Virus record (IMG/VR): IMGVR_UViG_2531839179_000025
Coordinates: 1 to 10,934 of that record
Strand: one strand, 5' to 3'
Source: a virus
Taxonomy: Duplodnaviria > Heunggongvirae > Uroviricota > Caudoviricetes
DNA: 10,934 nt
Part shown: in pieces, positions 1 to 10,934 of the stretch
How the letters are laid out: each line of letters begins with the position of its first letter
Position numbering within the stretch: position 1 is the first letter of the stretch
Made by a program: the position numbers and the translations under genes
The notes under the pieces: model-generated
What the model was told of the DNA's origin: nothing
The model's database searches: none
The model's input: the letters and a program-made list of their open reading frames with translations, nothing else

Positions 1-1032
1 ATGCCGATCATAGCACCAATTTCCCGTGACGAACGACGCCTGATGCAGAAAGCCATCCATAAAACACACGATAAAAATTATGCCCGCAGACTGACTGCCA
101 TGCTGATGCTGCACCGGGGCGACCGTGTCAGCGACGTTGCCAGAACGCTCTGCTGCGCCCGTTCCTCTGTTGGACGCTGGATTAACTGGTTCACGCAGTC
201 GGGTGTTGAGGGACTGAAATCATTACCTGCCGGGCGTGCCCGTCGCTGGCCGTTTGAGCATATCTGCACACTGTTACGTGAGCTGGTAAAACATTCTCCC
301 GGCGACTTTGGCTACCAGCGTTCACGCTGGAGTACAGAACTGCTGGCAATAAAAATCAATGAGATAACCGGTTGCCAGTTAAATGCCGGAACCGTTCGCC
401 GCTGGTTGCCGTCTGCGGGGATTGTGTGGCGAAGGGCTGCGCCAACTCTGCGTATCCGTGACCCGCATAAAGATGAAAAGATGGCAGCAATCCATAAAGC
501 ACTGGACGAATGCAGCGCAGAGCATCCGGTCTTTTATGAAGATGAAGTGGATATCCATCTTCATCCCAAAATCGGTGCGGACTGGCAACTGCGCGGACAG
601 CAAAAACGGGTGGTCACGCCGGGACAGAATGAAAAATATTATCTGGCCGGAGCGCTGCACAGCGGGACAGGTAAAGTCAGCTATGTGGGCGGCAACAGCA
701 AAAGTTCGGCGCTGTTCATCAGCCTGCTGAAGCGGCTTAAAGCGACATACCGTCGGGCGAAAACCATCACGCTGATCGTGGACAACTACATTATCCACAA
801 AAGCCGGGAAACACAGAGCTGGCTGAAGGAGAACCCGAAGTTCAGGGTCATTTATCAGCCGGTTTACTCGCCATGGGTGAATCATGTTGAACGGCTATGG
901 CAGGCACTTCACGACACAATAACGCGTAATCATCAGTGCCGCTCAATGTGGCAACTGTTGAAAAAAGTTCGCCATTTTATGGAAACCGTCAGCCCATTCC
1001 CCGGAGGCAAACATGGACTGGCAAAAGTGTAG
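1..1032 (+). CDS. IS630 transposase (DDE, Tc1/mariner superfamily)
   Basis: 343-aa ORF starting MPIIAPISRDERRLMQKAIHK and ending PFPGGKHGLAKV, recognised from memory as the IS630 transposase. The window begins exactly at its ATG, so upstream signals are not visible. Confidence 0.9.
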   Translation: MPIIAPISRDERRLMQKAIHKTHDKNYARRLTAMLMLHRGDRVSDVARTLCCARSSVGRWINWFTQSGVEGLKSLPAGRARRWPFEHICTLLRELVKHSPGDFGYQRSRWSTELLAIKINEITGCQLNAGTVRRWLPSAGIVWRRAAPTLRIRDPHKDEKMAAIHKALDECSAEHPVFYEDEVDIHLHPKIGADWQLRGQQKRVVTPGQNEKYYLAGALHSGTGKVSYVGGNSKSSALFISLLKRLKATYRRAKTITLIVDNYIIHKSRETQSWLKENPKFRVIYQPVYSPWVNHVERLWQALHDTITRNHQCRSMWQLLKKVRHFMETVSPFPGGKHGLAKV

Positions 1033-1052
1033 CGGTATTAAGCGCAGCTATT
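1..1052 (+). mobile_element. IS630-family insertion sequence, partial (left end lies outside the window; right end approximate)
   Basis: Contains the complete 343-aa transposase ORF that I recognise as IS630 Tc1/mariner-like transposase. The element must end within about 25 bp after the stop at 1030-1032. The exact right inverted repeat and TA target duplication could not be resolved by eye. Confidence 0.8.
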
Positions 1053-1380
1053 TAGCATCAAAATCAGAACCGAGATTAACGGTCACGTAGCCACGCTTCA
1101 TGGCGTCGCCCGGGAAGTTCTTGCCACTCCCCACCTGGCGAACCATGTCCGGCTGCGAAGTGGTCGGATAAGGGCGCACGTAGATCCCCTTCACCTTGTC
1201 TGCGGTATCACCATCTGCCAGCGGCACGAAAAAACCGTCATCATCGTATTTACCAGCCAGGCCATAGGCAGCAAAGGCGTTATCGGATTTAAGGACCACC
1301 GGTTCGACGGTTAAGTCCTGCGGGCGAGAAACAGCCCCGGCAATGCCAACAGGCATCCGGTACAGAAATACATTATTCAT
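1048..1380 (-). CDS. Phage head structural protein, probably an N-terminal fragment truncated by the IS630 insertion
   Basis: 110-aa ORF with RBS AAGGG 8-12 nt upstream of the ATG at 1380 and a start 3 nt after the stop of the upstream gene (translational coupling in the head operon). Its stop codon lies at the IS630 junction, and the position after a scaffold-like gene is where a major capsid gene (usually over 300 aa) is expected. Confidence 0.45.
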   Translation of the reverse strand: MNNVFLYRMPVGIAGAVSRPQDLTVEPVVLKSDNAFAAYGLAGKYDDDGFFVPLADGDTADKVKGIYVRPYPTTSQPDMVRQVGSGKNFPGDAMKRGYVTVNLGSDFDAK

Positions 1381-1383
1381 TTT

Positions 1384-2505
1384 TTACCCTTTACGGTTTG
1401 CCCAGAATTCAGCGTTTTGTTTGTTCAGGGAAGCGATACTGGTCATGCCCATGTTTGGGCGCTGTGCATCACCGACTATCTGGCGAACCAGCGTTTTGTC
1501 AGCGGAAGCCAGAACCTCGCGTTTGAACGCGGTCGGTTTCATCTTACGGCTCAGATCGATACCCGGAACGATAACTTCGGCACGCCAGGCTGAGTCACCA
1601 GTAATCGTGGTTTCCTCTTCATCGTCCTCGCCGTCACCGGTCGGATTAGCGTCAGGTTTATTATCGTTATCGCCCGTGGCATTTCCTTCCAGCTTAGCCA
1701 GCAGGGCTTTCAGTAATGTTTTGAGGTCATCATCACTGTCGCCGGTTGGACCTCCGCCCATCTCTGGTGCTTTGTCCGGTAGCGGTTGCTGCGGGGACAG
1801 GTTGATGTTGAGATTAACGCCCTGCGGCAAATCCCCCTCATCTCCTGTAACCGATGCGGGAGCCGACTCCACCAGTTCGTTCATGGTGTCAGCGTCACCC
1901 GTTTTGATGGCCGTGCGCATGCGGGTCCACCAGCTTTTCTTTTGATTTGCCATTGTGTCTCTGTCTCCAATTGCACAACGATTTCCGGCTCTGCCTTTAG
2001 GGACAAGAGCCACATGGTTTCCGGTAATATCGACCTGCTCGGCTTTACCTGGCTCGGTCTGCTCGTACTCCGCGTCATAGCCGCACGACACTTCGCGCAG
2101 GCCATCTTCGATAAGCTGAATGGCGCTTTCGTCTTTGACGATAAGGTCAGCCAGCATCAAATCAGACTGCTCACCCGTCCCGCGCCGGACATTCTGGAGG
2201 TGCCCGACAGCAAGCTCTTTCCAGTTCTCGGGATTTACCAGCCGCACATTCCCGTTTTCATCTTCAGGATGCAGGATCGTGATGCTCATCCCTTCGAATG
2301 AGGCAAGCGTGGCCGGATGGAATACCTGCTCAGGAGAACGCGTGACGACTATTTCACCGAACTTATCGGGTTTCAGTTTTGGCAGGTCATCAGCACCATA
2401 GAGCTGCTTACCTGTTCGTCCTATCGGCACGTCTTTGCACAGCAACGAGCCGTCAGCCAGGCGGTATCGGGTTTCCCCGAGCCTGGTCTCAAAAAAGTAT
2501 TTCAT
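1384..2505 (-). CDS. Phage head scaffold / prohead-core-like protein (DUF2213-like) with an acidic TGD-repeat linker
   Basis: 373-aa ORF placed between the head-morphogenesis gene and the capsid-position gene, starting 3 nt after the upstream stop. It has a central low-complexity acidic segment with repeated TGD/GD motifs, typical of scaffold-like proteins. Family assignment is from memory, not from a search. Confidence 0.6.
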   Translation of the reverse strand: MKYFFETRLGETRYRLADGSLLCKDVPIGRTGKQLYGADDLPKLKPDKFGEIVVTRSPEQVFHPATLASFEGMSITILHPEDENGNVRLVNPENWKELAVGHLQNVRRGTGEQSDLMLADLIVKDESAIQLIEDGLREVSCGYDAEYEQTEPGKAEQVDITGNHVALVPKGRAGNRCAIGDRDTMANQKKSWWTRMRTAIKTGDADTMNELVESAPASVTGDEGDLPQGVNLNINLSPQQPLPDKAPEMGGGPTGDSDDDLKTLLKALLAKLEGNATGDNDNKPDANPTGDGEDDEEETTITGDSAWRAEVIVPGIDLSRKMKPTAFKREVLASADKTLVRQIVGDAQRPNMGMTSIASLNKQNAEFWANRKG

Positions 2506-2508
2506 GGG

Positions 2509-3291
2509 TTATGCTGCCCTTTTCATTGCGAATGGAACGCGAACAAACACGATCTCTTTATAGCAGCGGCAGTTTGGCAGCTCGCCCGCGTGGCCGGTCA
2601 TGCCGTCCAAAGTTGGAGGTGAATCCCAGCGGACGAATTTACCTTTCATGTGATCGTGGGAATCTCGGACATCGCCATCATCGGCTGTACGCCAAATATA
2701 ACCATCCGAGCCAATAGCTATCGCTCGGGCCATATCCAGCGCGCCCGTTGCTCTTCCCAGTTCCGTTCGGGCAATCAGATCGGCCCTAGACTTAGCAACA
2801 TCGCCGGTAGATGCAATCTCTTTAGCAAACTGCTCCGCCCGACCACCGGTGACAACAGCCTCTATCGCTTTGTTCTGGATGTCGTACACCCTGTCTGCGG
2901 CCTCGAGAGGCAGAGATTTGATGTACTTGACCTGTTCGGCGATGATGGATTGCATCACCTGGCCCACAGGAGCGCTTTCCACAAGATTGCGGAGCTCGCG
3001 ACTGATGTTCTTGCTGTGTTGCCGCCAAACTTTCTCGTTCTGCCGGGTTAGGTCCGCAGTAAAGTTTTCCGCGACCTTTGTCGCCCAGGGGGTGATGATT
3101 TCACTGTAACGCTCCAGCGCCGCAATAATTTCCGTGATACTGTCATTTGAACCATCGTAGCGACCATTTACGATGTCTCCGACCGCCCTCGCTATCCTGC
3201 GTAGGCTGGTTCGATACCGGATTTCCGCCTGACGGCTCCTGCGGTTCGTCATCAGGTTCGCCGATGCCGGGCGGCGCTTCATCTTCGGCAT
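2509..3291 (-). CDS. Phage head morphogenesis protein (SPP1 gp7 / Mu gpF-like family)
   Basis: 260-aa ORF immediately downstream of the portal gene; the C-terminal region ending CRCYKEIVFVRVPF resembles the Mu F-like minor head protein family. The start is uncertain: the longest ORF overlaps the portal 3' end by 149 nt, and internal Met codons exist (for example at 3252). Confidence 0.7.
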   Translation of the reverse strand: MPKMKRRPASANLMTNRRSRQAEIRYRTSLRRIARAVGDIVNGRYDGSNDSITEIIAALERYSEIITPWATKVAENFTADLTRQNEKVWRQHSKNISRELRNLVESAPVGQVMQSIIAEQVKYIKSLPLEAADRVYDIQNKAIEAVVTGGRAEQFAKEIASTGDVAKSRADLIARTELGRATGALDMARAIAIGSDGYIWRTADDGDVRDSHDHMKGKFVRWDSPPTLDGMTGHAGELPNCRCYKEIVFVRVPFAMKRAA

Positions 3292-4609
3292 TCTCGATGT
3301 CCTCGTCGGTAATGGATGCCCCGATGCCGGTTACGTCAGAATTTTCTCGCAAATCAGTCATAGCGGCTTTCAGTGTCATCAGACCATCACCCAGCGCCGT
3401 ACTGATTGCGTTGGTGGTGTTTAACGCCACCGTTGAGCGATCGACATCAGACATTTGCCAGAGCGGGTTAAACTCAAACGTGAAATCGTCCGGCAGCGGC
3501 TTGCCAAGTTCCGAACGATGCATGATGTCCAGTATCCGCCGCACCGGAAGACGTAAACGCCTCTCCTGCAACGAACTGATGCGATCGTAATAGTTGGCAA
3601 GGTCTGCATCACCGGTAGAAAATCCTTTCGGGGACTGTCCGAACAACCGCACCAGTGGGATACCAACAGCGCCACTAATCTGTTCTGCAAACTGCGAAAG
3701 GATGTCATCCAGACCACTGAAGCTGTACTGATGGGTTTCAAACTTATCCCGCGAGTCCATGAGCGTCATGCCTTCATTACTCTGGAACTGTCGAATCAGG
3801 TCGATATTCTTCAGCAACGCTTCATACGCAGGACCACCAAGTGCGATAAGCTCGCGTAGCTTCTCCACGCTGTAGGTACGCAAATGCGCCTTGTAGACCA
3901 GCTGCGCCGCGCCGACAGTAGCGCTGTCGAACGCGGTAAGACGATCCCAGATACGCTCTACAACCGACATTCCCCATTCGTTCTCGGTCATCTTCTGCTG
4001 AAATGGCAACGTGACGCCATCAAAGCGAATCAGGCGACTGTGATGAATGCGCCAGGCAGGAATTCCCGTTGCTGTGGTCACCACATCGTAAAACTCAGGT
4101 TTACCCAGGTCCGGCCCCATATCTTTAATGCGGCGGGTCAGTGCCGGGTCGACCATCCAGCGGTCGAGCGGGAGAATCCCCTTAAACTTGCCCTTACCGA
4201 TGGTTTCGGGTCGCAGCGGGGTCATTGGTGCCTGCCCCTCAATCATGATGAAACCCACCGCGCCGCCGTAGAGGCGCGACCATTTCAGCACGTCATTCAG
4301 CGCATCCCAGATTTGCAACTCATCCAGTTGTGATTCGAGAATGCCACGATCTTTTGCATCAATTTCCGAAGTGATGCGAATGCCTTTGCGGGTCATATCA
4401 TCCGGGATAGCATCGACTGCTTCGCCGATGATCCAAGATGAACGATAGGACCATTCCACCAGCATGCGGTTACGGCTGGTGAAATTAGCCCGGTAGGTGG
4501 ATGCTGAGTGCTGGTTAGGTGTCTGCATCCCTACGCGGGCAATAAAATTCTCATAACCATCAGCTGTGGCCTGCACAGTTCGCCGCAGGGCTTGTTTGTT
4601 TCGTGCCAT
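3143..4609 (-). CDS. Phage portal protein (DUF1073-type)
   Basis: 488-aa ORF directly downstream of the large terminase, with its ATG overlapping the terminase stop (TGATG at 4607-4611). Size, position and an acidic C-terminal tail fit a portal protein. Confidence 0.8.
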   Translation of the reverse strand: MARNKQALRRTVQATADGYENFIARVGMQTPNQHSASTYRANFTSRNRMLVEWSYRSSWIIGEAVDAIPDDMTRKGIRITSEIDAKDRGILESQLDELQIWDALNDVLKWSRLYGGAVGFIMIEGQAPMTPLRPETIGKGKFKGILPLDRWMVDPALTRRIKDMGPDLGKPEFYDVVTTATGIPAWRIHHSRLIRFDGVTLPFQQKMTENEWGMSVVERIWDRLTAFDSATVGAAQLVYKAHLRTYSVEKLRELIALGGPAYEALLKNIDLIRQFQSNEGMTLMDSRDKFETHQYSFSGLDDILSQFAEQISGAVGIPLVRLFGQSPKGFSTGDADLANYYDRISSLQERRLRLPVRRILDIMHRSELGKPLPDDFTFEFNPLWQMSDVDRSTVALNTTNAISTALGDGLMTLKAAMTDLRENSDVTGIGASITDEDIENAEDEAPPGIGEPDDEPQEPSGGNPVSNQPTQDSEGGRRHRKWSLRWFK

Positions 4610-6030
4610 CAGGCCTGTCTCCCCAGCTGTTCCCAGATATCCAGCGATGTATCGATTGGCGCGAAGGCCATAATGAATGCATCAGCAACGTTTGGTGACG
4701 GTATCTCGCGTTTTGCGAGGTCTTTTTTACTTTCGACCATCACACGTCCGTTACGGTCGAAATCACGATGAGGTGTTGTCAGTTCCAGTTTCAGCTTTTC
4801 AAGCAACGGACAACGAGAATCTATGCTGATCAGCTCATCCACAGGATACTGTTCTCCGTTGTTAATGGCGTTAAACGTATTTCTGAAACGGTCAGCCACC
4901 AGCCACCATGCCTGAGCCTTAAGATTTGCGAAAAAGTCTTTGTTGGGGATGCCGTTGTACTCGTCATCTGGCTCATGCACACCAGCACCGGCGTTAAACC
5001 TCTGGTAATTCACACGTCGCGCGTATGCGTTCTCGCTCTTCCGGTCAGCGTTAATTTCAGAGAATTTAGCACCGGCAGACGCACCAACACCGATAGAGTC
5101 GTAAACAATATCTGCTTCACGCTCCAGCGCCGCCTGATAAGTACGCTGGCAGCTCTTCAGTAATTCATCTTCTTTGGCCTTCCATTCGTCGGCCCAGAAA
5201 ACAACGGATCCGTGACGGTAAACGTTAGCGCACTTATCTGTACCACTGTCAGCCACGTCAAAGCCAATACGCTTTCTTCCACTGGGTTCGAAATTTAACG
5301 TTTTGTGCGCATCCACTGCGGCTTCTATCCAAGACAGTTTGATGATTGCCGCATCATCATCAGACTCCGGAACGCCCTCATACACATGTTTAAAACCATC
5401 CGGATCACGGCGTCGCGCCGCGTCGATAACCTTAAGCATGGTGTCAGACAGAAACGGATTTTCGTCATAGTTAATTTTGCGGATGAGAGTGCCTTCGGGC
5501 GGATCAACAACGAAGTTGCGCCAGACGAAATCAGTAACAAGTCCGGGGTTGAATATGAACCAGCATTCCGAACCCTCTTTACGGATCGTTGGCTCCAGAA
5601 TTTTCCACTGGTATTCCGTCAGTGCGTGGGCTTCTTCCAGCCACAACACATCGATCCCCTCCAGTGACTTAATTTCTTCGATGTTGCGCCATAATCCATA
5701 AAAAACAAATTCCGAGCCAGTAACCCGGTTTATGATTTTGTTGTTCAGAATACGGAAACGGTGCCGCAGACCAAACCTGTCTATCTGAATTTTGAGCAGG
5801 GTATACACCGACTCTTCGATTTTATTCTGGATCTGACGGGCACAACAAAAACGCAGGGTGTATTTATTCGACAGAAATATGGCAATGCCAGCGGCATCCC
5901 ATGATTTTGACGATGACCGACCACCATAAAGCACTTTGTTACGTGCCCGCATAGTCCAGAAACTACGTAAAGCCGGATTCAGCGTCGGTTTGGATGTCAG
6001 AGTAGAAGTCATTGAGGTCACGCTCTCCAT
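4609..6030 (-). CDS. Phage terminase large subunit (PBSX / Terminase_3-like, headful type)
   Basis: Long ORF with an ATPase-like N-terminal region (YGGRSSSKSWD Walker-A-like; VLWLEEAH Walker-B-like) and a nuclease-like C-terminal half. The start is set at the ATG at 6030 (MESVTSMTSTL); the ORF track extends to 6120 and an alternative ATG is at 6012. Confidence 0.85.
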   Translation of the reverse strand: MESVTSMTSTLTSKPTLNPALRSFWTMRARNKVLYGGRSSSKSWDAAGIAIFLSNKYTLRFCCARQIQNKIEESVYTLLKIQIDRFGLRHRFRILNNKIINRVTGSEFVFYGLWRNIEEIKSLEGIDVLWLEEAHALTEYQWKILEPTIRKEGSECWFIFNPGLVTDFVWRNFVVDPPEGTLIRKINYDENPFLSDTMLKVIDAARRRDPDGFKHVYEGVPESDDDAAIIKLSWIEAAVDAHKTLNFEPSGRKRIGFDVADSGTDKCANVYRHGSVVFWADEWKAKEDELLKSCQRTYQAALEREADIVYDSIGVGASAGAKFSEINADRKSENAYARRVNYQRFNAGAGVHEPDDEYNGIPNKDFFANLKAQAWWLVADRFRNTFNAINNGEQYPVDELISIDSRCPLLEKLKLELTTPHRDFDRNGRVMVESKKDLAKREIPSPNVADAFIMAFAPIDTSLDIWEQLGRQA

Positions 6031-6727
6031 TGCCATCATCAATACCTGCATCACGGCGAAGACGATCAGCCTCCAGAGACACCTTATCAGTGGCGGCCTT
6101 GCGGTAGGCTGTATCAGCAAATATTTTTCCTACCGTCGCAAGCGTGCCAACGATGGACTCAATACGAACTGTATTGCGCATCATTGCTTTCTCGGCGGCG
6201 CTGATATTTTCAATCAGCATCTTCCTTTCCTGGTCCCCATTAGCATCTTCCAGCGACACCAACCACCGGCCAATATTCTCTGCAGCGACAAGGTTGTTAG
6301 CACGAAGGCGAAATAATTCGTCCTCGAGCGTCAACGCTTTAGCGTCCTCTATCACCTCATCTTTGAGCAGAAGGCGACGGGCATAACCACCGTGTTTTAA
6401 TGCCTGCTGGTTACCGGGTTGGAATGGGTTAGTCGGGGGATCGGTACGCATTCCGCGTATCGGTTTCGTATCCGGTGTAGATTCTGTTTTTAGTTGCGTA
6501 CTTTTTTGTGTAAGGCCAGTAATGGCAGGCTTTCTGCTGGTACGCACTTTCCTTTTTTGCGTACCATTTTTGCAAACCTGCGTACCGCCACTGCGTGCCC
6601 AACCAAGCTTTTTGGCCCTCTTCCTGATAGCCCCTTCTGTAACGCCGTATTTCTCGCCTATATCACGGAGGCTAAGGACTCCGGCCCGGTATGCCGATTC
6701 GATGGCCTCCCAGTCCGGTTTTGCCAT
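5963..6727 (-). CDS. Phage terminase small subunit (HTH DNA-binding, DNA packaging)
   Basis: 254-aa ORF immediately upstream of and overlapping the large terminase. The N-terminus (LSLRDIGEKYGVTEGAIRKRAKKLGW) looks like a helix-turn-helix typical of small terminase subunits. Confidence 0.7.
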   Translation of the reverse strand: MAKPDWEAIESAYRAGVLSLRDIGEKYGVTEGAIRKRAKKLGWARSGGTQVCKNGTQKRKVRTSRKPAITGLTQKSTQLKTESTPDTKPIRGMRTDPPTNPFQPGNQQALKHGGYARRLLLKDEVIEDAKALTLEDELFRLRANNLVAAENIGRWLVSLEDANGDQERKMLIENISAAEKAMMRNTVRIESIVGTLATVGKIFADTAYRKAATDKVSLEADRLRRDAGIDDGNGERDLNDFYSDIQTDAESGFT

Positions 6728-6841
6728 GATTATGCTTTCTGTGATTTACTGTTATCGCTGCCTGTCACAATAGGTTGCTTTAATTCTTCCTCATCACTCA
6801 CTCCTGCGACGCTCCGTGGCAGGGCCCCCCACAGGAGTACC

Positions 6842-6871
6842 TTGTAAATGTAAGGTGTTTAAGCCTAAATT
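6842..6871 (+). promoter_or_regulatory. Candidate sigma70 promoter for the plus-strand membrane-protein gene
   Basis: TTGTAA (6842-6847), 18-nt spacer, TAAATT (6866-6871), about 55 nt upstream of the ATG at 6925. Sequence match only. Confidence 0.25.
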
Positions 6872-6924
6872 AAGTCGTATCACGGTTAAATAGCAAAGAA
6901 AAATTCACAGAAGGAAAGACATTG

Positions 6925-7434
6925 ATGGAGTGGATAAATGCTTTGATGAACTATTTTGTACTTCATCCATATCGCCTATGGGGGCTTCTTTTTATAATAG
7001 CGTTCACAAAATCCACTTTACTCATTTCGGCGATATTGCCACCAGCATCAATTATGATGGCCACTGTAATTACAGTCAGCAAGACGACTCTTTCACCATG
7101 GGAAGCTGGAATCACGGTCATGAGTGGCGCATGGTGCGGTACTATCGTTAATTACCATCTTGGTATAATAATTGGGCATATCCCTCAACTTGCATGTATA
7201 ATATCGAGCCGTTCCAATACAATAGAACGGGTTCGCCTTCAGTTGCAAAATAACTCTGTGTCAATACTTTTCACTTCGCGCTTTATCGCCGTGCTGCGTT
7301 ATATTGCTCCTTTGGTGGCAGGAATGTTGCAACTTCATCCAGTGAAAGTGTATACAGTGAGTCTGATTTCAGCTGCTAGCTGGTCAGCACTTTATGTTGG
7401 TAGTTTTAGCTTCGTGTTGCCTTTTTTTAGCTAA
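6925..7434 (+). CDS. DedA-family-like (TVP38/SNARE-associated-like) inner membrane protein; moron on the opposite strand
   Basis: 169-aa hydrophobic ORF with RBS AAGGAAAG 6 nt upstream of the ATG at 6925 (the track ORF begins at a TTG at 6922). The C-terminal stretch SRFIAVLRYIAPLVAGMLQLHPVKVYTVSLISAASW resembles the DedA signature (RF..G.R....AG...M....F......A..W). The gene is visibly AT-richer than its flanks and opposes all neighbouring phage genes. Confidence 0.55.
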   Translation: MEWINALMNYFVLHPYRLWGLLFIIAFTKSTLLISAILPPASIMMATVITVSKTTLSPWEAGITVMSGAWCGTIVNYHLGIIIGHIPQLACIISSRSNTIERVRLQLQNNSVSILFTSRFIAVLRYIAPLVAGMLQLHPVKVYTVSLISAASWSALYVGSFSFVLPFFS

Positions 7435-7522
7435 ACTGCCCATAAAAAGCTCTTGCGAATCCAGCTTCCCCCATTCCTCTGACAACAGAATCTGATTTGA
7501 AGGATAATGAGTAAAATTACCG

Positions 7523-7993
7523 CTACCCCCCAAGGCATTGGATCCTGATGTACTCCTGAAGCATTCTCAATGCTGTCTGGTCGCTGATGATTCCGTCCCG
7601 GATACCGAGAACGTTTCGTCCAGCAACTGGAGAGAGTTCGACGGTGGCATCATTGCCCATGCCGGAGGCGCTGGAGGTTTCGGCTGAGGATGGCACAGGG
7701 CATTTTCCTTTGACGAGCACCCAACCACCATTATCAAGCTTGCGCCGAAGAGCATCATTTTCAGCTTTCGCATTGGCTAACTCCTTCGTGTATTTAGCAT
7801 CGAGTGCATCAGCAGCACGCTGGCGCTGCTGCATGTCAGTAATGGTTGCGTTCGCCAGCTTCAGTTCTCTTGCGTTTTTGTCGCGCTGCTCTTTGTAGGT
7901 AATGGCGTTATCACGGTAATGATTAACAGCCCATGACAGGCAGACGATGATGCAGATAACCAGAGCGGAGATAATCGCGGTGACTCTGCTCAT
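7523..7993 (-). CDS. Rz: Rz i-spanin (inner-membrane spanin subunit)
   Basis: 156-aa ORF starting [49 protein letters not shown], very close to lambda/21 Rz, with an N-terminal transmembrane segment. The ATG at 7993 overlaps the endolysin stop. Confidence 0.85.
7567..7773 (-). CDS. Rz1: Rz1 o-spanin lipoprotein, embedded in the +1 frame of Rz
   Basis: 68-aa [24 protein letters not shown] with a lipobox (VVGC) and a proline-rich segment [11 protein letters not shown], lying wholly inside Rz. A strong RBS (AAGGAG) sits 7 nt upstream of the ATG at 7773. Confidence 0.8.
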
Positions 7994-8487
7994 TGCTGCC
8001 CCCACAAACAGACTTCACGCTCAATCTCACGACGGGTCATCAGCCCTTTCCATTGCTTACCGCCAGCATATGTCCAGCGACGTAGCTGGTCACATGCGCC
8101 TTTGATATCGCCCTGGTTTATTTTGCGAAGAAGCGTCGATGTTCTGAAATTGCCAGCGCCCACGTTGTAAACGAACGAGTAAAGAGCGCCGCGCGTTGTT
8201 TCCGGTATATCGACTTTGATGTACGGGTTAATTTGTCTGGCGACAGTGGCAAGGTCTTTATTCAGGAGAGCTTTGCATTCTGCTTCGGTATACGTTTTAC
8301 CAGGCATGATGTCTTTTCCGGTGTGTCCGTGACATACAGTCCATACACCAATGATATCTTTGTATGGTATGTAGCTGACACCTTCCAGACCATCGTTACC
8401 ACCTGGGCCAGTGATTAACACAGATGCTATAGCAACAGCCCCGCCACCAATAGCAACTGCAACAGCCTTGCGTAATGATGGCGACAT
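7990..8487 (-). CDS. R: SAR endolysin (phage 21 R-like lysozyme, T4-lysozyme fold)
   Basis: 165-aa ORF with an N-terminal Gly/Ala-rich signal-anchor-release segment ([20 protein letters not shown]) followed by a lysozyme catalytic region ([25 protein letters not shown]). The ATG overlaps the holin stop. Confidence 0.9.
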
Positions 8488-8702
8488 TATTCACCTCTCG
8501 CAGCCTTACGCTTATCTTCTCTTATTTTGAAATACAGATTCGTCAGATAAGTCAGAAGCCCCAGAAGCAGACTTCCCAGCACACCAATCGCAGCCCACTG
8601 TGATGGACTGACCTGATCCAACCACTGCAAAAACCAGTAGCCGGCACTGCCGGCGGAGGTGCCGTAGGCAATGCCTGTTGATATTTTTTCCATCTGATAC
8701 AT
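8487..8702 (-). CDS. S: Class II pinholin (phage 21 S-like), dual-start holin/antiholin
   Basis: 71-aa [30 protein letters not shown]... with two start codons (Met1 and Met4) and two transmembrane segments, matching S21. Confidence 0.9.
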
Positions 8703-8734
8703 ATCCCGCCCCCCGACAGACCTGTGCTATCGGA

Positions 8735-8768
8735 AAGAAAAAAGGCCATCAGCAAAACTCTGATGGCC
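8735..8768 (-). terminator. Rho-independent terminator on the minus strand, about 35 nt upstream of the holin start
   Basis: Perfect 9-bp stem GGCCATCAG / CTGATGGCC (8744-8752 and 8760-8768) with a 7-nt loop, followed on the minus strand by TTTTTTCTTTCC. Confidence 0.6.
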
Positions 8769-9381
8769 TGAATCACCTTTACCAATATTGTATGAAAAAA
8801 CACGCACGTCTAATTGACAATAATTTTCATTTCCATTAAAAAAGATCGCGTAGCATTCTTAATTCATGAGGAACTTTACCCGCCAGCAATCTGAGTAGCG
8901 AAAGCTGTTCATCCCCAATGTTTTTGCTGGCGGGTCCTTTTTTCTACGGTCCTCCTCCCCGGAGGGGGCATTTCATTATTTTTCTAATCATTACTGGTGA
9001 GAAGGCGGAAGAAAAAGCCAGTTCTTCGCCCCTAAATAACAGCATGATTCCAGTCCATGCAAAATCTGATTTCCAGCTCACACATACCGAGCACTGTACA
9101 AAAAACCGCCAGCCAAGGCAGTTAAGAGTGTGTTCCCGGGGTTTGCTTAGAATATTTTGTAAGTTGTCCGAAGAGATATTTACAACACCAGAATGATGCA
9201 TTATCAGTCCCCTGCCAGAGGTTCACTACGTAACCTGACCGACAATGCACCATTCTGGTGCTGAAAAAAGAGCACTGGAACTGCAACAAAACAACATCAC
9301 AGAACAGGAGATGGTAAGGAGTCAGACATTCCCACACAATATTGTGTCAGTGCAAATAACAACCTTCGTCTCAAATCTCGC

Positions 9382-9456
<75 letters not shown>

Positions 9457-9459
9457 ATA

Positions 9460-9535
<76 letters not shown>

Positions 9536-9537
9536 GC

Positions 9538-9614
9538 TGGCCCACCACCGAGGACTCGAACCTCGCACCGTCAACTTAGAAGGTTGATGCTCTATCCGGA
9601 TGAGCTAGTGGTGG
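9538..9614 (-). tRNA. tRNA-Arg (anticodon UCU)
   Basis: 77-nt cloverleaf: acceptor CCACCAC/GTGGTGG, anticodon stem TCAAC/GTTGA with loop CTTCTAA, T-loop TTCGAGT, encoded CCA. Confidence 0.8.
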
Positions 9615-9615
9615 T

Positions 9616-9692
9616 TGGTGGCCCTTGCTGGACTTGAACCAGCGACCTGGCGATTATGAGTCGCTCGCTCTGACCAACTGAGCTAAAGGGCC
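9616..9692 (-). tRNA. tRNA with CAU anticodon, Ile2-like (ileX/ileZ-type, reads AUA after lysidine modification; Met not excluded)
   Basis: 77-nt cloverleaf: acceptor GGCCCTT/AAGGGCC, anticodon arm GCGACTCATAATCGC and T-arm GGTCGCTGGTTCAAGTCCAGC nearly identical to E. coli tRNA-Ile2 as I recall it; encoded CCA. Confidence 0.8.
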
Positions 9693-9701
9693 GGAGGCAG
9701 A

Positions 9702-9730
9702 ATAATAACCATATGTCATCACATCTGCAA
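9702..9730 (-). promoter_or_regulatory. Candidate sigma70 promoter driving the tRNA array
   Basis: On the minus strand: TTGCAG (-35, plus coords 9725-9730), 17-nt spacer, TATTAT (-10, 9702-9707), placing the start site within a few nt of the first tRNA 5' end at 9692. Confidence 0.35.
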
Positions 9731-9779
9731 ACTCATCTGACCACCAGCACGTTTAACGTCCTGTGCCGTTTTTCAGGTA

Positions 9780-9802
9780 TAAAAAAACCCGCATAAAGCG
9801 GG
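9780..9802 (-). terminator. Rho-independent terminator (tR'-like) between the late promoter and the tRNA array
   Basis: GC stem CCCGC / GCGGG (9788-9792 and 9798-9802) with loop ATAAA, followed on the minus strand by 8 T residues (9780-9787). Confidence 0.5.
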
Positions 9803-9863
9803 CTCTTTCAAATGTCCATGTCTGCTATTCGCCTCGCGGTACAGCTTTGCGAAGCGTACAAGA

Positions 9864-9892
9864 ATTGAAGCAGTTTATGGCTAAAATTGCAA
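9864..9892 (-). promoter_or_regulatory. Candidate late promoter (pR'-like) with extended -10
   Basis: On the minus strand: TTGCAA (-35, 9887-9892), 17-nt spacer, TGcTTCAAT (extended -10, 9864-9872). It begins 5 bp after the stop of the upstream gene and lies about 65-80 nt upstream of the terminator, as in lambdoid pR'-tR' units. Confidence 0.35.
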
Positions 9893-9899
9893 GAACTTT

Positions 9900-10457
9900 T
9901 TAAAGCTGCATCAGCCTTTCCACCAGTTTATCTCTGCGAACAACAAACCAACCATTGGCTCTCGCCAGTTCCAGCCATGACTCAAGGGAAATAACAATAT
10001 CATCATCCCGCAACTGAATTGTGGAAACAGTGACACCGCCTTGCTGATAACAGAGAACTCGCGTGTCGTAACTTTTCTGGCATGAAACTGGCGTTGACGG
10101 CTCCTTTTGACTGAAATAGCAGTCTTCCAGTTTTTCGAACACATCCCACGCCTGATCGGTTTCGAGCATTTTTGCGTGGCGGGCTGCGCCGCGTTCTGTC
10201 CAGAGAATGAGGGAGCGGTTTTTGGGAGAGATGGGATTTTGTGAGTAGTTTAAAGCTACCCGCAATTCTTTAAGGTCATTACCAACAACTTTGAAAAAGT
10301 GTTTCCCTTCAACGAAGCGTACTTTGTTCTCATGATGATTCTGGCGAATACGCACCGGCTCAGTGCCGTAAAGCTGCGCCAAAAGTTCGGTGGTAATAAC
10401 AGGAATCTGGTTATAGGTAACAGGGGAAAGGTTTTTGACAGAAATCTGAACAGTCAT
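9900..10457 (-). CDS. ORF6N-domain (KilA-N-related) DNA-binding phage protein, antirepressor-like; sits in the position usually held by the Q antiterminator
   Basis: 185-aa ORF with RBS GAGG 5 nt upstream of the ATG at 10457. The N-terminal region PVITTELLAQLYGTEPVRIRQNHHENKVRFVEGKHFFKVVGNDLKEL and the downstream WTERGAARHAKML match the ORF6N pattern (LA.LYGV....L...V.RN..RF...F.F.L...E...L ... FTE.G.AML) as I recall it. Confidence 0.6.
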   Translation of the reverse strand: MTVQISVKNLSPVTYNQIPVITTELLAQLYGTEPVRIRQNHHENKVRFVEGKHFFKVVGNDLKELRVALNYSQNPISPKNRSLILWTERGAARHAKMLETDQAWDVFEKLEDCYFSQKEPSTPVSCQKSYDTRVLCYQQGGVTVSTIQLRDDDIVISLESWLELARANGWFVVRRDKLVERLMQL

Positions 10458-10617
10458 AACGACCTCGCGTTTCGATGGTTTTTAACTCACCACCTGCGAC
10501 GCCAATCGCTGGGTGGTGAACTGTGCAGGGTTGGCGTAACCGGTCGAAACATCCGGCGAGTCTCTCAACTCCCCCACACAGCCCACCATAAATCGCGAAT
10601 GTGACTGTGCTTAGCGC

Positions 10618-10640
10618 ATAAAAAAACCGCCAGCGCGGTT
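10618..10640 (-). terminator. Putative rho-independent terminator on the minus strand, between the IS3-family element and the ORF6N gene
   Basis: Stem AACCGC / GCGGTT (10625-10630 and 10635-10640) with loop CAGC, followed on the minus strand by a run of T (10620-10626). The stem is short. Confidence 0.4.
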
Positions 10641-10651
10641 ATGCACCGTTT

Positions 10652-10934
10652 TGAGGTAGCCTGAGTTTAACGGACACTCCTTCCTGAAATAGAATGGCAT
10701 CAGAAGGAGCTAATAATGAGCAGAAAAACCCAACGTTACTCTAAAGAGTTCAAAGCCGAAGCTGTCAGAACGGTTCTTGAAAATCAACTTTCGATCAGTG
10801 AAGGCGCTTCCCGATTATCCCTTCCTGAAGGCACTTTAGGACAATGGGTTACCGCCGCCAGAAAAGGACTCGGTACTCCTGGTTCCCGCACGGTGGCTGA
10901 ACTGGAATCTGAAATTCTGCAACTGCGTAAGGCG
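10652..10934 (+). mobile_element. IS3-family insertion sequence (IS600-like), left end and 5' part only
   Basis: A terminal TGAGGTAGCC... begins at 10652 (IS3-family ends start with TG), followed 63 nt later by an OrfA-type ORF. The element continues beyond the window. Confidence 0.7.
10715..10934 (+). CDS. IS3-family transposase OrfA (helix-turn-helix N-terminal ORF), 3'-partial
   Basis: Strong RBS AAGGAG 7 nt upstream of the ATG at 10715. The translation MSRKTQRYSKEFKAEAVRTVLENQLSISEGASRLSLPEGTLGQWV... ELESEILQLRKA is recognised as an IS600-like OrfA with HTH and the start of a leucine zipper; it runs off the window end. Confidence 0.85.

Follow-up and report, generated by a model that had tools for sequence, protein, structure and literature searches.

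The 679 bp between the last tRNA gene and the class II holin gene of an Escherichia coli lambdoid prophage (positions 8703-9381) contain no protein gene, and they probably represent a moron slot that is free of cargo but has kept a non-coding framework, made of two horizontally exchanged modules with convergent small RNAs (sRNAs) and terminators. The prophage is represented by a stretch of 10,934 nucleotides (nt), positions 1 to 10,934 of the IMG/VR record IMGVR_UViG_2531839179_000025, which is called the window in the following. Its late region is encoded on the minus strand in the order Q, pR'-tR', tRNA genes, cargo slot, and holin. The segment in the cargo slot is neither empty nor a dead gene. 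It belongs to a class of RNA and terminator frameworks in moron slots that has already been described in Shiga-toxin (Stx) prophages and in prophages of enteropathogenic E. coli (EPEC), and it is a sequence variant of this class that has not yet been described. The segment has no coding capacity, is a mosaic of two modules, contains a long hairpin that is conserved for the late strand, follows tRNA genes with a conserved promoter, and shares its framework with the locus of the sRNA EcOnc32. A preliminary description of the window had already recognised the Stx-phage-like order of the late region, which ARAGORN, Rfam, and the RefSeq annotation confirm for the minus strand, and had seen no credible open reading frame (ORF) between the last tRNA and the holin, in agreement with the ORF list, the profile searches, and the comparison of homologues. 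The gap that it delimited is real, but the start given for it, 8776, falls 73 bp inside the gap. An identical copy of the gap is present in E. coli FDAARGOS_944 (NZ_CP065613.1, 4301364-4302042), and eight further complete genomes have copies that are at least 98.8% identical. In all nine genomes with the full segment RefSeq annotates nothing in the gap.

The four ORFs of the gap are short and overlapping, and none of them has a match in Pfam or PHROGs, even at E<=10. The 92-amino-acid (aa) ORF, compared with 5.8 billion proteins, belongs to no family and retrieved only two near-identical partial "hypothetical proteins". Both this ORF and the 85-aa ORF cross the mosaic junction at about 9082/9083, which excludes them as conserved genes of either module. 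In the 87% identical homologue of the holin-proximal half there are insertions and deletions of one, two, and three nucleotides, frameshifts among them, the length of a G-run varies among near-identical copies of the segment, and the 71-aa frame meets a stop codon after 5-15 codons in the homologues. Small ORFs that start in either arm of the long hairpin continue in unrelated ways in different variants. Thus, neither the conserved frame nor the protein relatives that would mark a protein-coding moron or cargo gene were found.

The mosaic structure becomes evident from the distribution of the two halves. Module I (9083-9381) goes with tRNA-Gly and module II (8703-9082) with the holin. Module II is present at 87% identity in about 1500 E. 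coli records (1428 of the 5426 complete genomes), and the match ends at 9082. In chromosomes it sits before class II holins and has varied upstream content, for example a DNA methyltransferase gene in the relative L002. A copy from window position 8734 onwards (8734-9082) with 85-87% identity was found in 558 PLSDB plasmids of the IncF and ColV types. In pAPEC-1 (NC_011980.1, IncF; 3001-3344), the one plasmid whose context was inspected, the gene tables of PLSDB being incomplete, module II is found as a prophage remnant about 400 bp from iss, a homologue of bor, and no holin is annotated. The plasmid remnant includes the guard terminator and the antisense promoter and terminator unit described below. 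The nmpC-essD region of the K-12 prophage DLP12, in the neighbourhood of IpeX, and the essD-type upstream region of phage 683R6 were considered as further relatives of module II but are not similar. Module I has a different distribution. Its homologues (window positions 9097-9365) are only distant, with 68-76% identity, and are found in 238 E. coli genomes, always directly downstream of tRNA-Gly and irrespective of the lysis cassette that follows. This cassette is either of the class II holin type or of a type with two holins and an M15 peptidase, which is known from phi80-like prophages (DH5alpha, NZ_CP026085.1, with module I at about 2580260-2580650), from prophages of enterotoxigenic E. coli, and from an LT-IIb phage. 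The LT-IIb phage, SerU-LTIIb (KU052038.1), contains two copies of tRNA-Gly with trailer and hairpin (3350-3712 and 5260-5618), each before a holin1-type gene, and the copies belong to two different sequence subtypes. A counterpart in Stx phages, which the preliminary description had proposed to look for by BLASTN, did not turn up in 50,697 phage records searched with megablast and blastn: the distant search gave five weak partial matches, none of them from Stx phages.

The most prominent element of module I is a long hairpin with a near-continuous stem of about 29-33 bp including several G-U pairs, whose 5' arm begins in the U-run of the preceding tRNA-Gly trailer. Its minimum free energy (MFE) is -48 kcal/mol (z -7.8) on the minus strand and -31 kcal/mol on the plus strand. 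With a 23-nt motif from the 3' arm we retrieved 86 viral contigs, from which 60 distinct extracts of 390 nt around the motif were taken, and the hairpin alignment comprises 22 distinct variants. The late strand forms the more stable structure in all 22 variants, by 21.6 kcal/mol on average. The 33 proposed pairs are formed in 95.6% of the alignment cells, compared with 35-57% if the 3' partner is slid by one to three columns. Six pairs have changed on both sides, as in the replacement of CAGAAUGG/CAUUCUG by CGGGAUGG/CAUCCCG, a number to be read with the retrieval motif in mind, which fixes most of the 3' arm and leaves two-sided changes visible at few positions only. Another twelve pairs vary on one side and nevertheless stay paired, mostly via G-U wobble. 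With a covariance model of the hairpin, the late strand reaches 81 bits and the antisense strand 41 bits. These features point to selection on an RNA of the late strand and not on the DNA or on a peptide. In 80 of its 92 occurrences the motif is located at a distance of 175-192 nt downstream of tRNA-Gly(TCC), whereas the composition of the tRNA array before it is variable, and among species-representative genomes it is confined to E. coli and Shigella flexneri. A match in Acetobacterium paludosum (NZ_RXYA01000004.1, 6569-6591) is a chance 23-mer in a coding region, without partner arm or tRNA.

Some contigs (L025, L056, and L047) lack the 5' arm of the hairpin. In L056 (3746-5031) an IS3-family element is found immediately upstream, and in L047 the stretch from a Q gene to the loop of the hairpin has been replaced and no tRNA is present. 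The idea that a moron had been inserted into the hairpin in such contigs was abandoned, as they have in fact insertion sequence (IS) insertions or replacements. The loci of the L106 type (21 viral contigs) have a gap of 292 nt between tRNA-Gly and the holin, which contains neither of the window's modules but its own guard terminator. There, tRNA-Gly is followed by another long hairpin (UAUGAAUGAUCGCC...GGCGAUCAUUCAUA). By eye it resembles the hairpin of the window (GAAUGAU...AUCAUUC), but it is not detected by the covariance model of the latter and is considered only analogous.

The hairpin is flanked by two candidate terminators. Upstream of it, the tRNA-Gly trailer can be folded into a branched domain that is closed by GCACUG (9353-9348) and CAGUGC (9277-9272) and followed by a U-run (9269-9264). 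This domain may be a first terminator, T1. It was not called by ARAGORN, as a degenerate tRNA might have been, and the RNAalifold consensus for a branched terminator is weak (-10 kcal/mol with an invariant closing helix). The inner hairpins of the domain show some compensatory changes. Downstream of the hairpin, a tail ends in terminator T2, consisting of a stem at 9123-9104 and six U at 9103-9098, with a folding energy of -10 kcal/mol. The T2 motif AAC(U/C)GCC...GGCGGU(n) is common to the relative L007, in which a U-G pair is replaced by C-G, and to an STnc100-like element in the phi80-type prophage of DH5alpha. A literature search for the region of the tRNA and the hairpin in phi80 and Lula found nothing relevant, and the hairpin linked to tRNA-Gly is the one element of the gap for which no description was found in the literature.

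Module II contains a terminator for each strand. The guard terminator T3 on the late strand lies about 35-40 nt upstream of the start codon of the holin (-17.3 kcal/mol, z -4.2). It is identical in the 87% homologues, and in the prophages Sp3 of E. coli Sakai and PP4 of EPEC E2348/69 the pairing is kept through a U-G wobble that is valid on the late strand only. To judge how common such a terminator is, 450 nt of sequence before the holin were taken from 80 class II holin loci of viral contigs and from five reference loci and grouped into 19 mutually unrelated clusters. Of these clusters, 16 have a terminator on the late strand no more than 200 nt from the holin, compared with 28% of the shuffled sequences, and under strict rules eight of the 19 have one, compared with 1%. 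Guard terminators thus recur in front of class II holins. On the opposite strand we found a candidate promoter whose element ATTGACAATAAT is identical in 12 of 12 positions upstream of the EcOnc32 gene (Sakai Sp3) and in E2348/69 PP4. It is conserved in the chromosomal 87% lineage, and in the plasmid lineage TTGACA-17-TAAAAA is kept with substituted flanking bases (GTTGACAGTGAT). The candidate sRNA downstream of it would end in a terminator with a 12-bp stem (8878-8889 paired with 8924-8935; CCCGCCAGCAA and TTGCTGGCGGG), an inner hairpin with a GAAA loop, and six U at 8938-8943 (-28.4 kcal/mol, z -5.1). Stem and U-run are conserved in the chromosomal lineages, and the plasmid variant shows one A-C mismatch in the stem. 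T2, T3, and this antisense terminator (8878-8943, plus strand) all have the G+C-rich hairpin and the U-run expected of intrinsic terminators; these, like T1 as the third terminator of the late strand, are predicted hairpin-plus-U-run motifs. Just past the antisense terminator there is a further hairpin, CCTCCTCCCCGGAGGGGG (8951-8968, plus strand), in which the length of the G-run varies and which is absent from the 87% homologues. This hairpin is probably non-functional.

The tRNA genes appear to have a promoter of their own. Its -35 element can be read as TTGCAG or TTTGCA, the spacer has 17-18 nt, and the -10 element is TATTAT (9707-9702), 9 nt ahead of the first tRNA. Of 29 distinct upstream sequences, most have TTGCA(G/A)-17-TATTAT at a fixed distance from the tRNA with the CAT anticodon, although the flanks are otherwise unrelated. 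The promoter is located downstream of the pR'-tR' unit and the operon should therefore be independent of Q. Judged from this arrangement, the tRNA operon is probably transcribed in the lysogen without Q, and transcription of this kind creates a need for termination before the lysis genes. The trailer, directly 3' of the last tRNA in an operon with its own promoter, has the position of a 3' external transcribed spacer (3'ETS).

Table 1. Coordinates of the features in and around the gap, in the order of late transcription, with the ORFs of the gap at the end.
Feature	Position	Strand	Basis or remark
DUF1133 Q-like gene	9900-10457	-	upstream of the tRNA array
tRNA-array promoter, sigma-70-type	9702..9731	-	promoter scan and conservation
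tRNA Met/Ile2-CAT	9616-9692	-	ARAGORN, Rfam
tRNA Arg-TCT	9538-9614	-	ARAGORN, Rfam
tRNA Thr-TGT	9460-9535	-	ARAGORN, Rfam
tRNA Gly-TCC	9382-9456	-	ARAGORN, Rfam
tRNA-Gly trailer, candidate terminator T1	9264..9381	-	RNAalifold consensus; low confidence
Long RNA hairpin	9179..9267	-	MFE, covariation, covariance model
Post-hairpin tail ending in T2	9098..9178	-	terminator scan; downstream end of module I
Mosaic junction	9082..9083	.	module I (with tRNA-Gly) meets module II (with holin)
Candidate sRNA, ~95 nt	8849..8943	+	antisense to the late transcript, converges on T2; 5' end inferred only
Antisense promoter candidate	8814..8842	+	-35 TTGACA (8814-8819), 17-nt spacer, -10 TAAAAA (8837-8842)
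Guard intrinsic terminator T3	8734..8769	-	terminator scan; 10-bp stem 8769-8743, then UUUUUCUUU
Class II holin gene	8487-8702	-	opens the lysis cassette and bounds the gap downstream; ORF list and RefSeq at the identical locus
ORF, 92 aa	8918-9196	+	
ORF, 85 aa	8944-9201	-	
ORF, 71 aa	9122-9337	-	
ORF, 61 aa	9245-9430	+	runs into tRNA-Gly

The surroundings of the gap are those of a lambdoid late region. The four tRNAs (9382-9692, minus strand) read rare codons, score 56-70 bits with the Rfam tRNA model, and are annotated likewise by RefSeq at the identical locus. Downstream of the holin, which has relatives of 87-100% identity in 80 viral contigs, come the rrrD lysozyme, Rz, and then the genes for packaging and for the head. 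A DedA-family membrane protein is encoded between Rz and the terminase (6922-7434, plus strand); its gene is a moron that is transcribed towards the lysis genes. At the other end, just upstream of the Q-like gene, Rfam finds a C4 antisense RNA (RF01695, 68.7 bits with a gathering score of 45; 10509-10593, minus strand), a family that is part of the immunity and antirepressor control of the phage P1/P7 type. Directly after the Q-like gene a pR'-like promoter, TTGCAA-17-TTCAAT (9892-9864, minus strand), can be seen by eye, and after it a hairpin with a U-run (9805-9781, minus strand) that the terminator scan does not report. Together (9781-9892) they would give rise to a short transcript of about 77 nt that resembles lambda 6S or StxS; the only Rfam matches over 9779-9866 are weak ones to the Trp leader and isrK. 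Another slot with Q, tRNA-Ile, tRNA-Arg, an IS element, cargo, and holin is found in PP6 of E2348/69 (NC_011601.1, 1442500-1447500), where the published sRNA E2348C_1409.E2348C_1408.IGR, a homologue of EcOnc08/21/42, is encoded in the stretch from the IS element to the DUF6645 cargo gene, on the strand that does not carry the late genes.

Based on these elements the locus could work as follows. Module I would be the 3' trailer of an autonomous prophage tRNA operon that needs no Q in the lysogen. The transcript would run through the four tRNAs into the structured trailer and end at T1 or T2. The duplex of about 30 bp might serve as an element for processing or stability, probably as a substrate of the RNase III type. 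Such substrates have about 20 bp or more of near-continuous double-stranded RNA, and the window offers a 29-bp helix together with an apical helix. Cleavage there would detach the tRNA precursor from the RNA behind it and leave a short, stable, terminator-ended RNA, which would occupy the position of the STnc100- or PasD-like sRNA of phi80-type relatives. From the other side, the antisense promoter and its strong terminator would generate an RNA of about 95 nt and of the Hfq type that converges on T2, so that a convergent pair of sRNAs like those of enterohaemorrhagic E. coli (EHEC) would result. This RNA could act in trans via Hfq and in cis on late RNA that reads through. Residual transcription would be blocked by T3 before it reaches the holin, and T1, T2, and T3 together would keep polymerases from the tRNA promoter or from moron promoters off the lysis genes in the lysogen. 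After induction, Q-modified polymerase starting at pR' would read through all of these terminators. Read-through of terminators by Q-modified polymerase is established biology of lambda Q. It is also conceivable, if only as a tentative extension, that the duplex is an undescribed processing element by which a constitutive tRNA trailer is turned into a terminator-ended regulatory RNA in the manner of the 3'ETS, STnc100-like in phi80-type phages and shorter and new in the window, and that T1 to T3 represent a general insulation of the lysis genes until Q-modified polymerase arrives.

Several observations weigh against this explanation. The closing helix of T1 is nearly invariant in sequence, so that covariation can neither test nor support it. 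Leaving aside T2 itself, the tail of about 80 nt beyond the hairpin has no significant fold (z -0.1), and cleavage of the hairpin by RNase III is speculation. The -10 element TAAAAA of the antisense promoter does not have the conserved final T and was hence not called by the promoter scan, and all transcript ends at the locus are inferred. The transcribed body of the candidate sRNA is not significantly similar to that of EcOnc32 (z ~1). Comparing the window by blastn with the PasA, PasC, and PasD1 loci of E2348/69 revealed only a 12-mer, ATTGACAATAAT, and with a covariance model of three genes, PasA, PasC, and one that is PasC-like, the candidate scores 10.4 bits (E ~4.5), no better than generic terminators, so that it was not assigned to the Pas family. 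STnc100 (gathering score 47 bits) and the other sRNA families of Rfam, AgvB and AsxR among them, have no match at E<=10 in 8940-9385 of the window, and across the gap and the whole window Rfam reports no STnc100, AgvB, AsxR, Esr41, or IsrK at significance. Within the gap its matches are the tRNAs at the edge and spurious ones to miRNA precursors, for which the long hairpin is responsible. The near-identity of the nine full-length copies reflects recent spread and not selection. Finally, in related prophages 118-292 nt separate the tRNAs from the holin, and the segment is therefore dispensable or accessory. The preliminary description had considered that tRNAs might directly abut the holin in homologous prophages: in some relatives the two are indeed only 118 nt apart, but many others contain clear homologues of each half of the segment.

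Of the three interpretations that the preliminary description had offered, an untranslated or small-RNA region fits best, given the conserved RNA structure with compensatory changes, the intrinsic terminators, and the collinearity with a region encoding an Hfq-bound sRNA. An empty cargo site is partly correct, as relatives encode proteins in the interval between Q and the holin (such as the methyltransferase of L002, upstream of the holin in E2348/69 a sialate esterase, or in Stx2 phages stx2, upstream of STnc100), but the segment itself is conserved, functional-looking DNA and not a bare junction. The third interpretation, a cargo gene that has decayed into a pseudogenised moron, could draw on the same protein genes of the relatives and on the ORFs of 61-92 aa. 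However, Pfam and PHROGs stay blank, the 92-aa ORF has its two partial relatives only, the longest ORFs straddle the module junction, homologues contain frameshifting indels and early stops, and the substitutions follow the RNA pairing and not the codon structure. A decayed protein gene is therefore very unlikely and this interpretation did not hold. It is even harder to imagine that the segment encodes a very small protein such as the ORF beginning with MHHSGVV in the 3' arm of the hairpin. The ATG and the first seven codons are the same in all variants, but this follows from the conservation of the arm. The ATG is hidden within the 30-bp stem, the variants have nothing in common beyond codon 7, neither in ORF length nor in sequence (18, 21, and 85-97 aa by hand translation), and there is no match to any family. 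Hardly any more probability can be given to the inverted repeat acting as DNA, be it as cruciform, as protein-binding palindrome, or as the ends of a miniature transposon. The repeat is near-perfect over about 90 bp, both strands fold better than shuffled sequences, and IS elements have inserted in or near the hairpin in some contigs. Yet each copy has six to eight G-U pairs, which are A-C mismatches in the DNA and on the other strand, the advantage of the late strand of about 22 kcal/mol is found in 22 of 22 variants, and the repeat is not dispersed but is confined to a single locus at a fixed distance from tRNA-Gly.

Two other explanations accept the non-coding nature of the segment. It might be a passive linker, composed of recently spread boundary sequences of recombination and of terminators left over from morons, whose RNA has no function of its own. 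Each half is indeed found in many different contexts, full-length copies are nearly identical, some relatives do not have the segment at all, and the body of the sRNA is not conserved with EcOnc32. But homologues of module I that are only 68-76% identical have kept the pairing over about 30 bp by changes that fit one strand only, within module II nothing is better preserved than the promoter element and the terminator stems, and the homologous unit in Sp3 yields an abundant Hfq-bound RNA. We regard a purely passive role as rather unlikely. Even less probable, though not to the degree of the coding and DNA-level explanations, is that the hairpin and U-run at 8878-8943 (plus strand) are a mere terminator against antisense transcription from plus-strand morons and not the end of an sRNA. 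The DedA-family gene does point at the lysis genes, bor or iss have the same orientation in relatives, and the -10 element of the proposed antisense promoter is weak. On the other hand, the perfect TTGACA with its 17-nt spacer is found in all lineages and in common with the EcOnc32 gene, and the RNAs known from this position, EcOnc32, PasA, and PasC, are discrete and have about 80-112 nt. The cargo-less slot with an RNA and terminator framework is thus the explanation that we prefer.

The interval between Q/pR' and the lysis genes is the site where lambdoid phages carry the Shiga toxin and other cargo, and where abundant Hfq-bound sRNAs of EHEC and EPEC prophages are encoded. The present locus offers a view of this slot without protein cargo. 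It suggests that a framework persists there which is built from exchangeable modules, namely a tRNA operon and the promoter that belongs to it, the structured trailer of this operon, two converging RNAs, and a terminator that guards the holin. If the predicted RNAs are made, a new body variant would be added to the group of EcOnc32 and the Pas sRNAs, and a route from tRNA trailers to prophage sRNAs would be indicated. In this case, the holin-proximal module would be active in about one quarter of the complete E. coli genomes, and a remnant of it adjoins the serum-resistance gene iss on IncF/ColV virulence plasmids. If they are not made, the segment is simply a non-coding spacer that had been correctly spotted.

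Of the systems to which the locus can be compared, two concern the trailer and its hairpin. Polycistronic RNAs of phages carry processing hairpins for RNase III, for example at the early sites of T7, in sib of lambda, and in the N leader. The hairpin of the window is, like these, a long, near-perfect intergenic duplex in a polycistronic transcript, but has no sequence relation to them and is tied to a tRNA gene. In the work of Lalaouna et al. 2015, sRNAs of the 3'ETS-leuZ type are said to derive from the transcribed spacer at the 3' end of a tRNA operon, from which they are released. The window has the same arrangement of a structured RNA directly 3' of the last tRNA, an operon with its own promoter, and an end at a terminator. 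In contrast, its predicted trailer is much longer, at about 285 nt, and has the 30-bp duplex as its dominant part.

With STnc100 (RF02076), PasD, and EcOnc13 the locus has in common a late-strand, terminator-ended RNA between the pR'-proximal region or cargo and the holin, in the window predicted from T2 (9098-9123, minus strand). In Stx2 phages STnc100 is located 75 nt downstream of stx2 (PMC12370729). The tail in the window differs in having about 80 nt instead of about 190 nt and no CGGGAGGCACCCG core. The phi80-type prophage of DH5alpha (L008, from NZ_CP026085.1) has, at 2322-2518 of L008 on the minus strand, a sub-threshold STnc100 match (24.4 bits, E 0.002-0.007) over the full length of the model, which begins in the 3' arm of the hairpin and ends in a T2-type terminator. 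This suggests that STnc100-like RNAs in the phi80-type prophage could arise by processing of the hairpin. Convergent pairs of Hfq-bound sRNAs have been found at the moron site downstream of PR' in EHEC prophages, and in Sp5 stx2 sits in that slot (Tree et al. 2014, PMC4104026). The window resembles these pairs and AsxR/AgvB in its two converging, terminator-ended RNAs, as predicted, between PR' and the lysis genes. AsxR and AgvB are, however, only 51-60 nt long and share no similarity with the window, neither in sequence nor by the covariance models RF02702/RF02703: there was no Rfam match to them at E<=1 in 8400-10000 or at E<=10 in 8940-9385, their published sequences are absent, and the RNAs of the window do not belong to these families.

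The closest correspondence is that of the antisense unit to EcOnc32, PasA, and PasC. In E2348/69 the antisense sRNAs PasA and PasC and the late-strand, STnc100-related PasD adjoin the holin-lysozyme operon (Pearl Mizrahi et al. 2021, PMC8550237 Table S6; Zhu et al. 2026, bioRxiv 10.64898/2026.05.13.724894). Like the window unit, PasA and PasC are intergenic, directly upstream of the holin-lysozyme operon and antisense to it, and they have a TTGACA promoter, a length of about 80-85 nt, and a GCCAGC/GCTGGC stem with a U-tract. They differ in that they usually follow a sialate esterase gene, which the window does not have. EcOnc32 of Sakai Sp3 is an sRNA of about 112 nt that was identified by Hfq-CRAC (cross-linking and analysis of cDNA) and confirmed by northern blot (PMC4104026 Table S2). 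The northern probe is the reverse complement of the Sp3 antisense transcript, and in Sp3 EcOnc32 converges on the late-strand EcOnc13, the homologue of PasD. Expression and Hfq binding have been shown for EcOnc32, while the window unit is known from its sequence. The EcOnc32 unit, of which PP4 of E2348/69 has an identical copy, is encoded in antisense orientation to the late operon, next to a guard terminator and some 100-230 nt before a class II holin. The window unit has the same position, as have those of the relatives L003, L004, L006, and L183, the identical promoter element, and a terminator of the same type (CGCCAGC...GCNGGC followed by a U-run), although its terminator encloses a structured loop of 32 nt. 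The 258 holin-adjacent nucleotides of the window are collinear with Sp3 (65% identity, z 8.7 compared with 500 shuffles) and have in common with it the leader of the holin, the guard terminator, the promoter element, and the type of terminator. Significant similarity is limited to this flanking framework and does not extend to the transcribed RNA. Conserved ends and variable bodies have been reported for these sRNA families in general. Given a conserved framework around a differing body, the window unit, as far as its sequence tells, would be a positional homologue and a new body variant of the EcOnc32/Pas group rather than a demonstrated member of it.

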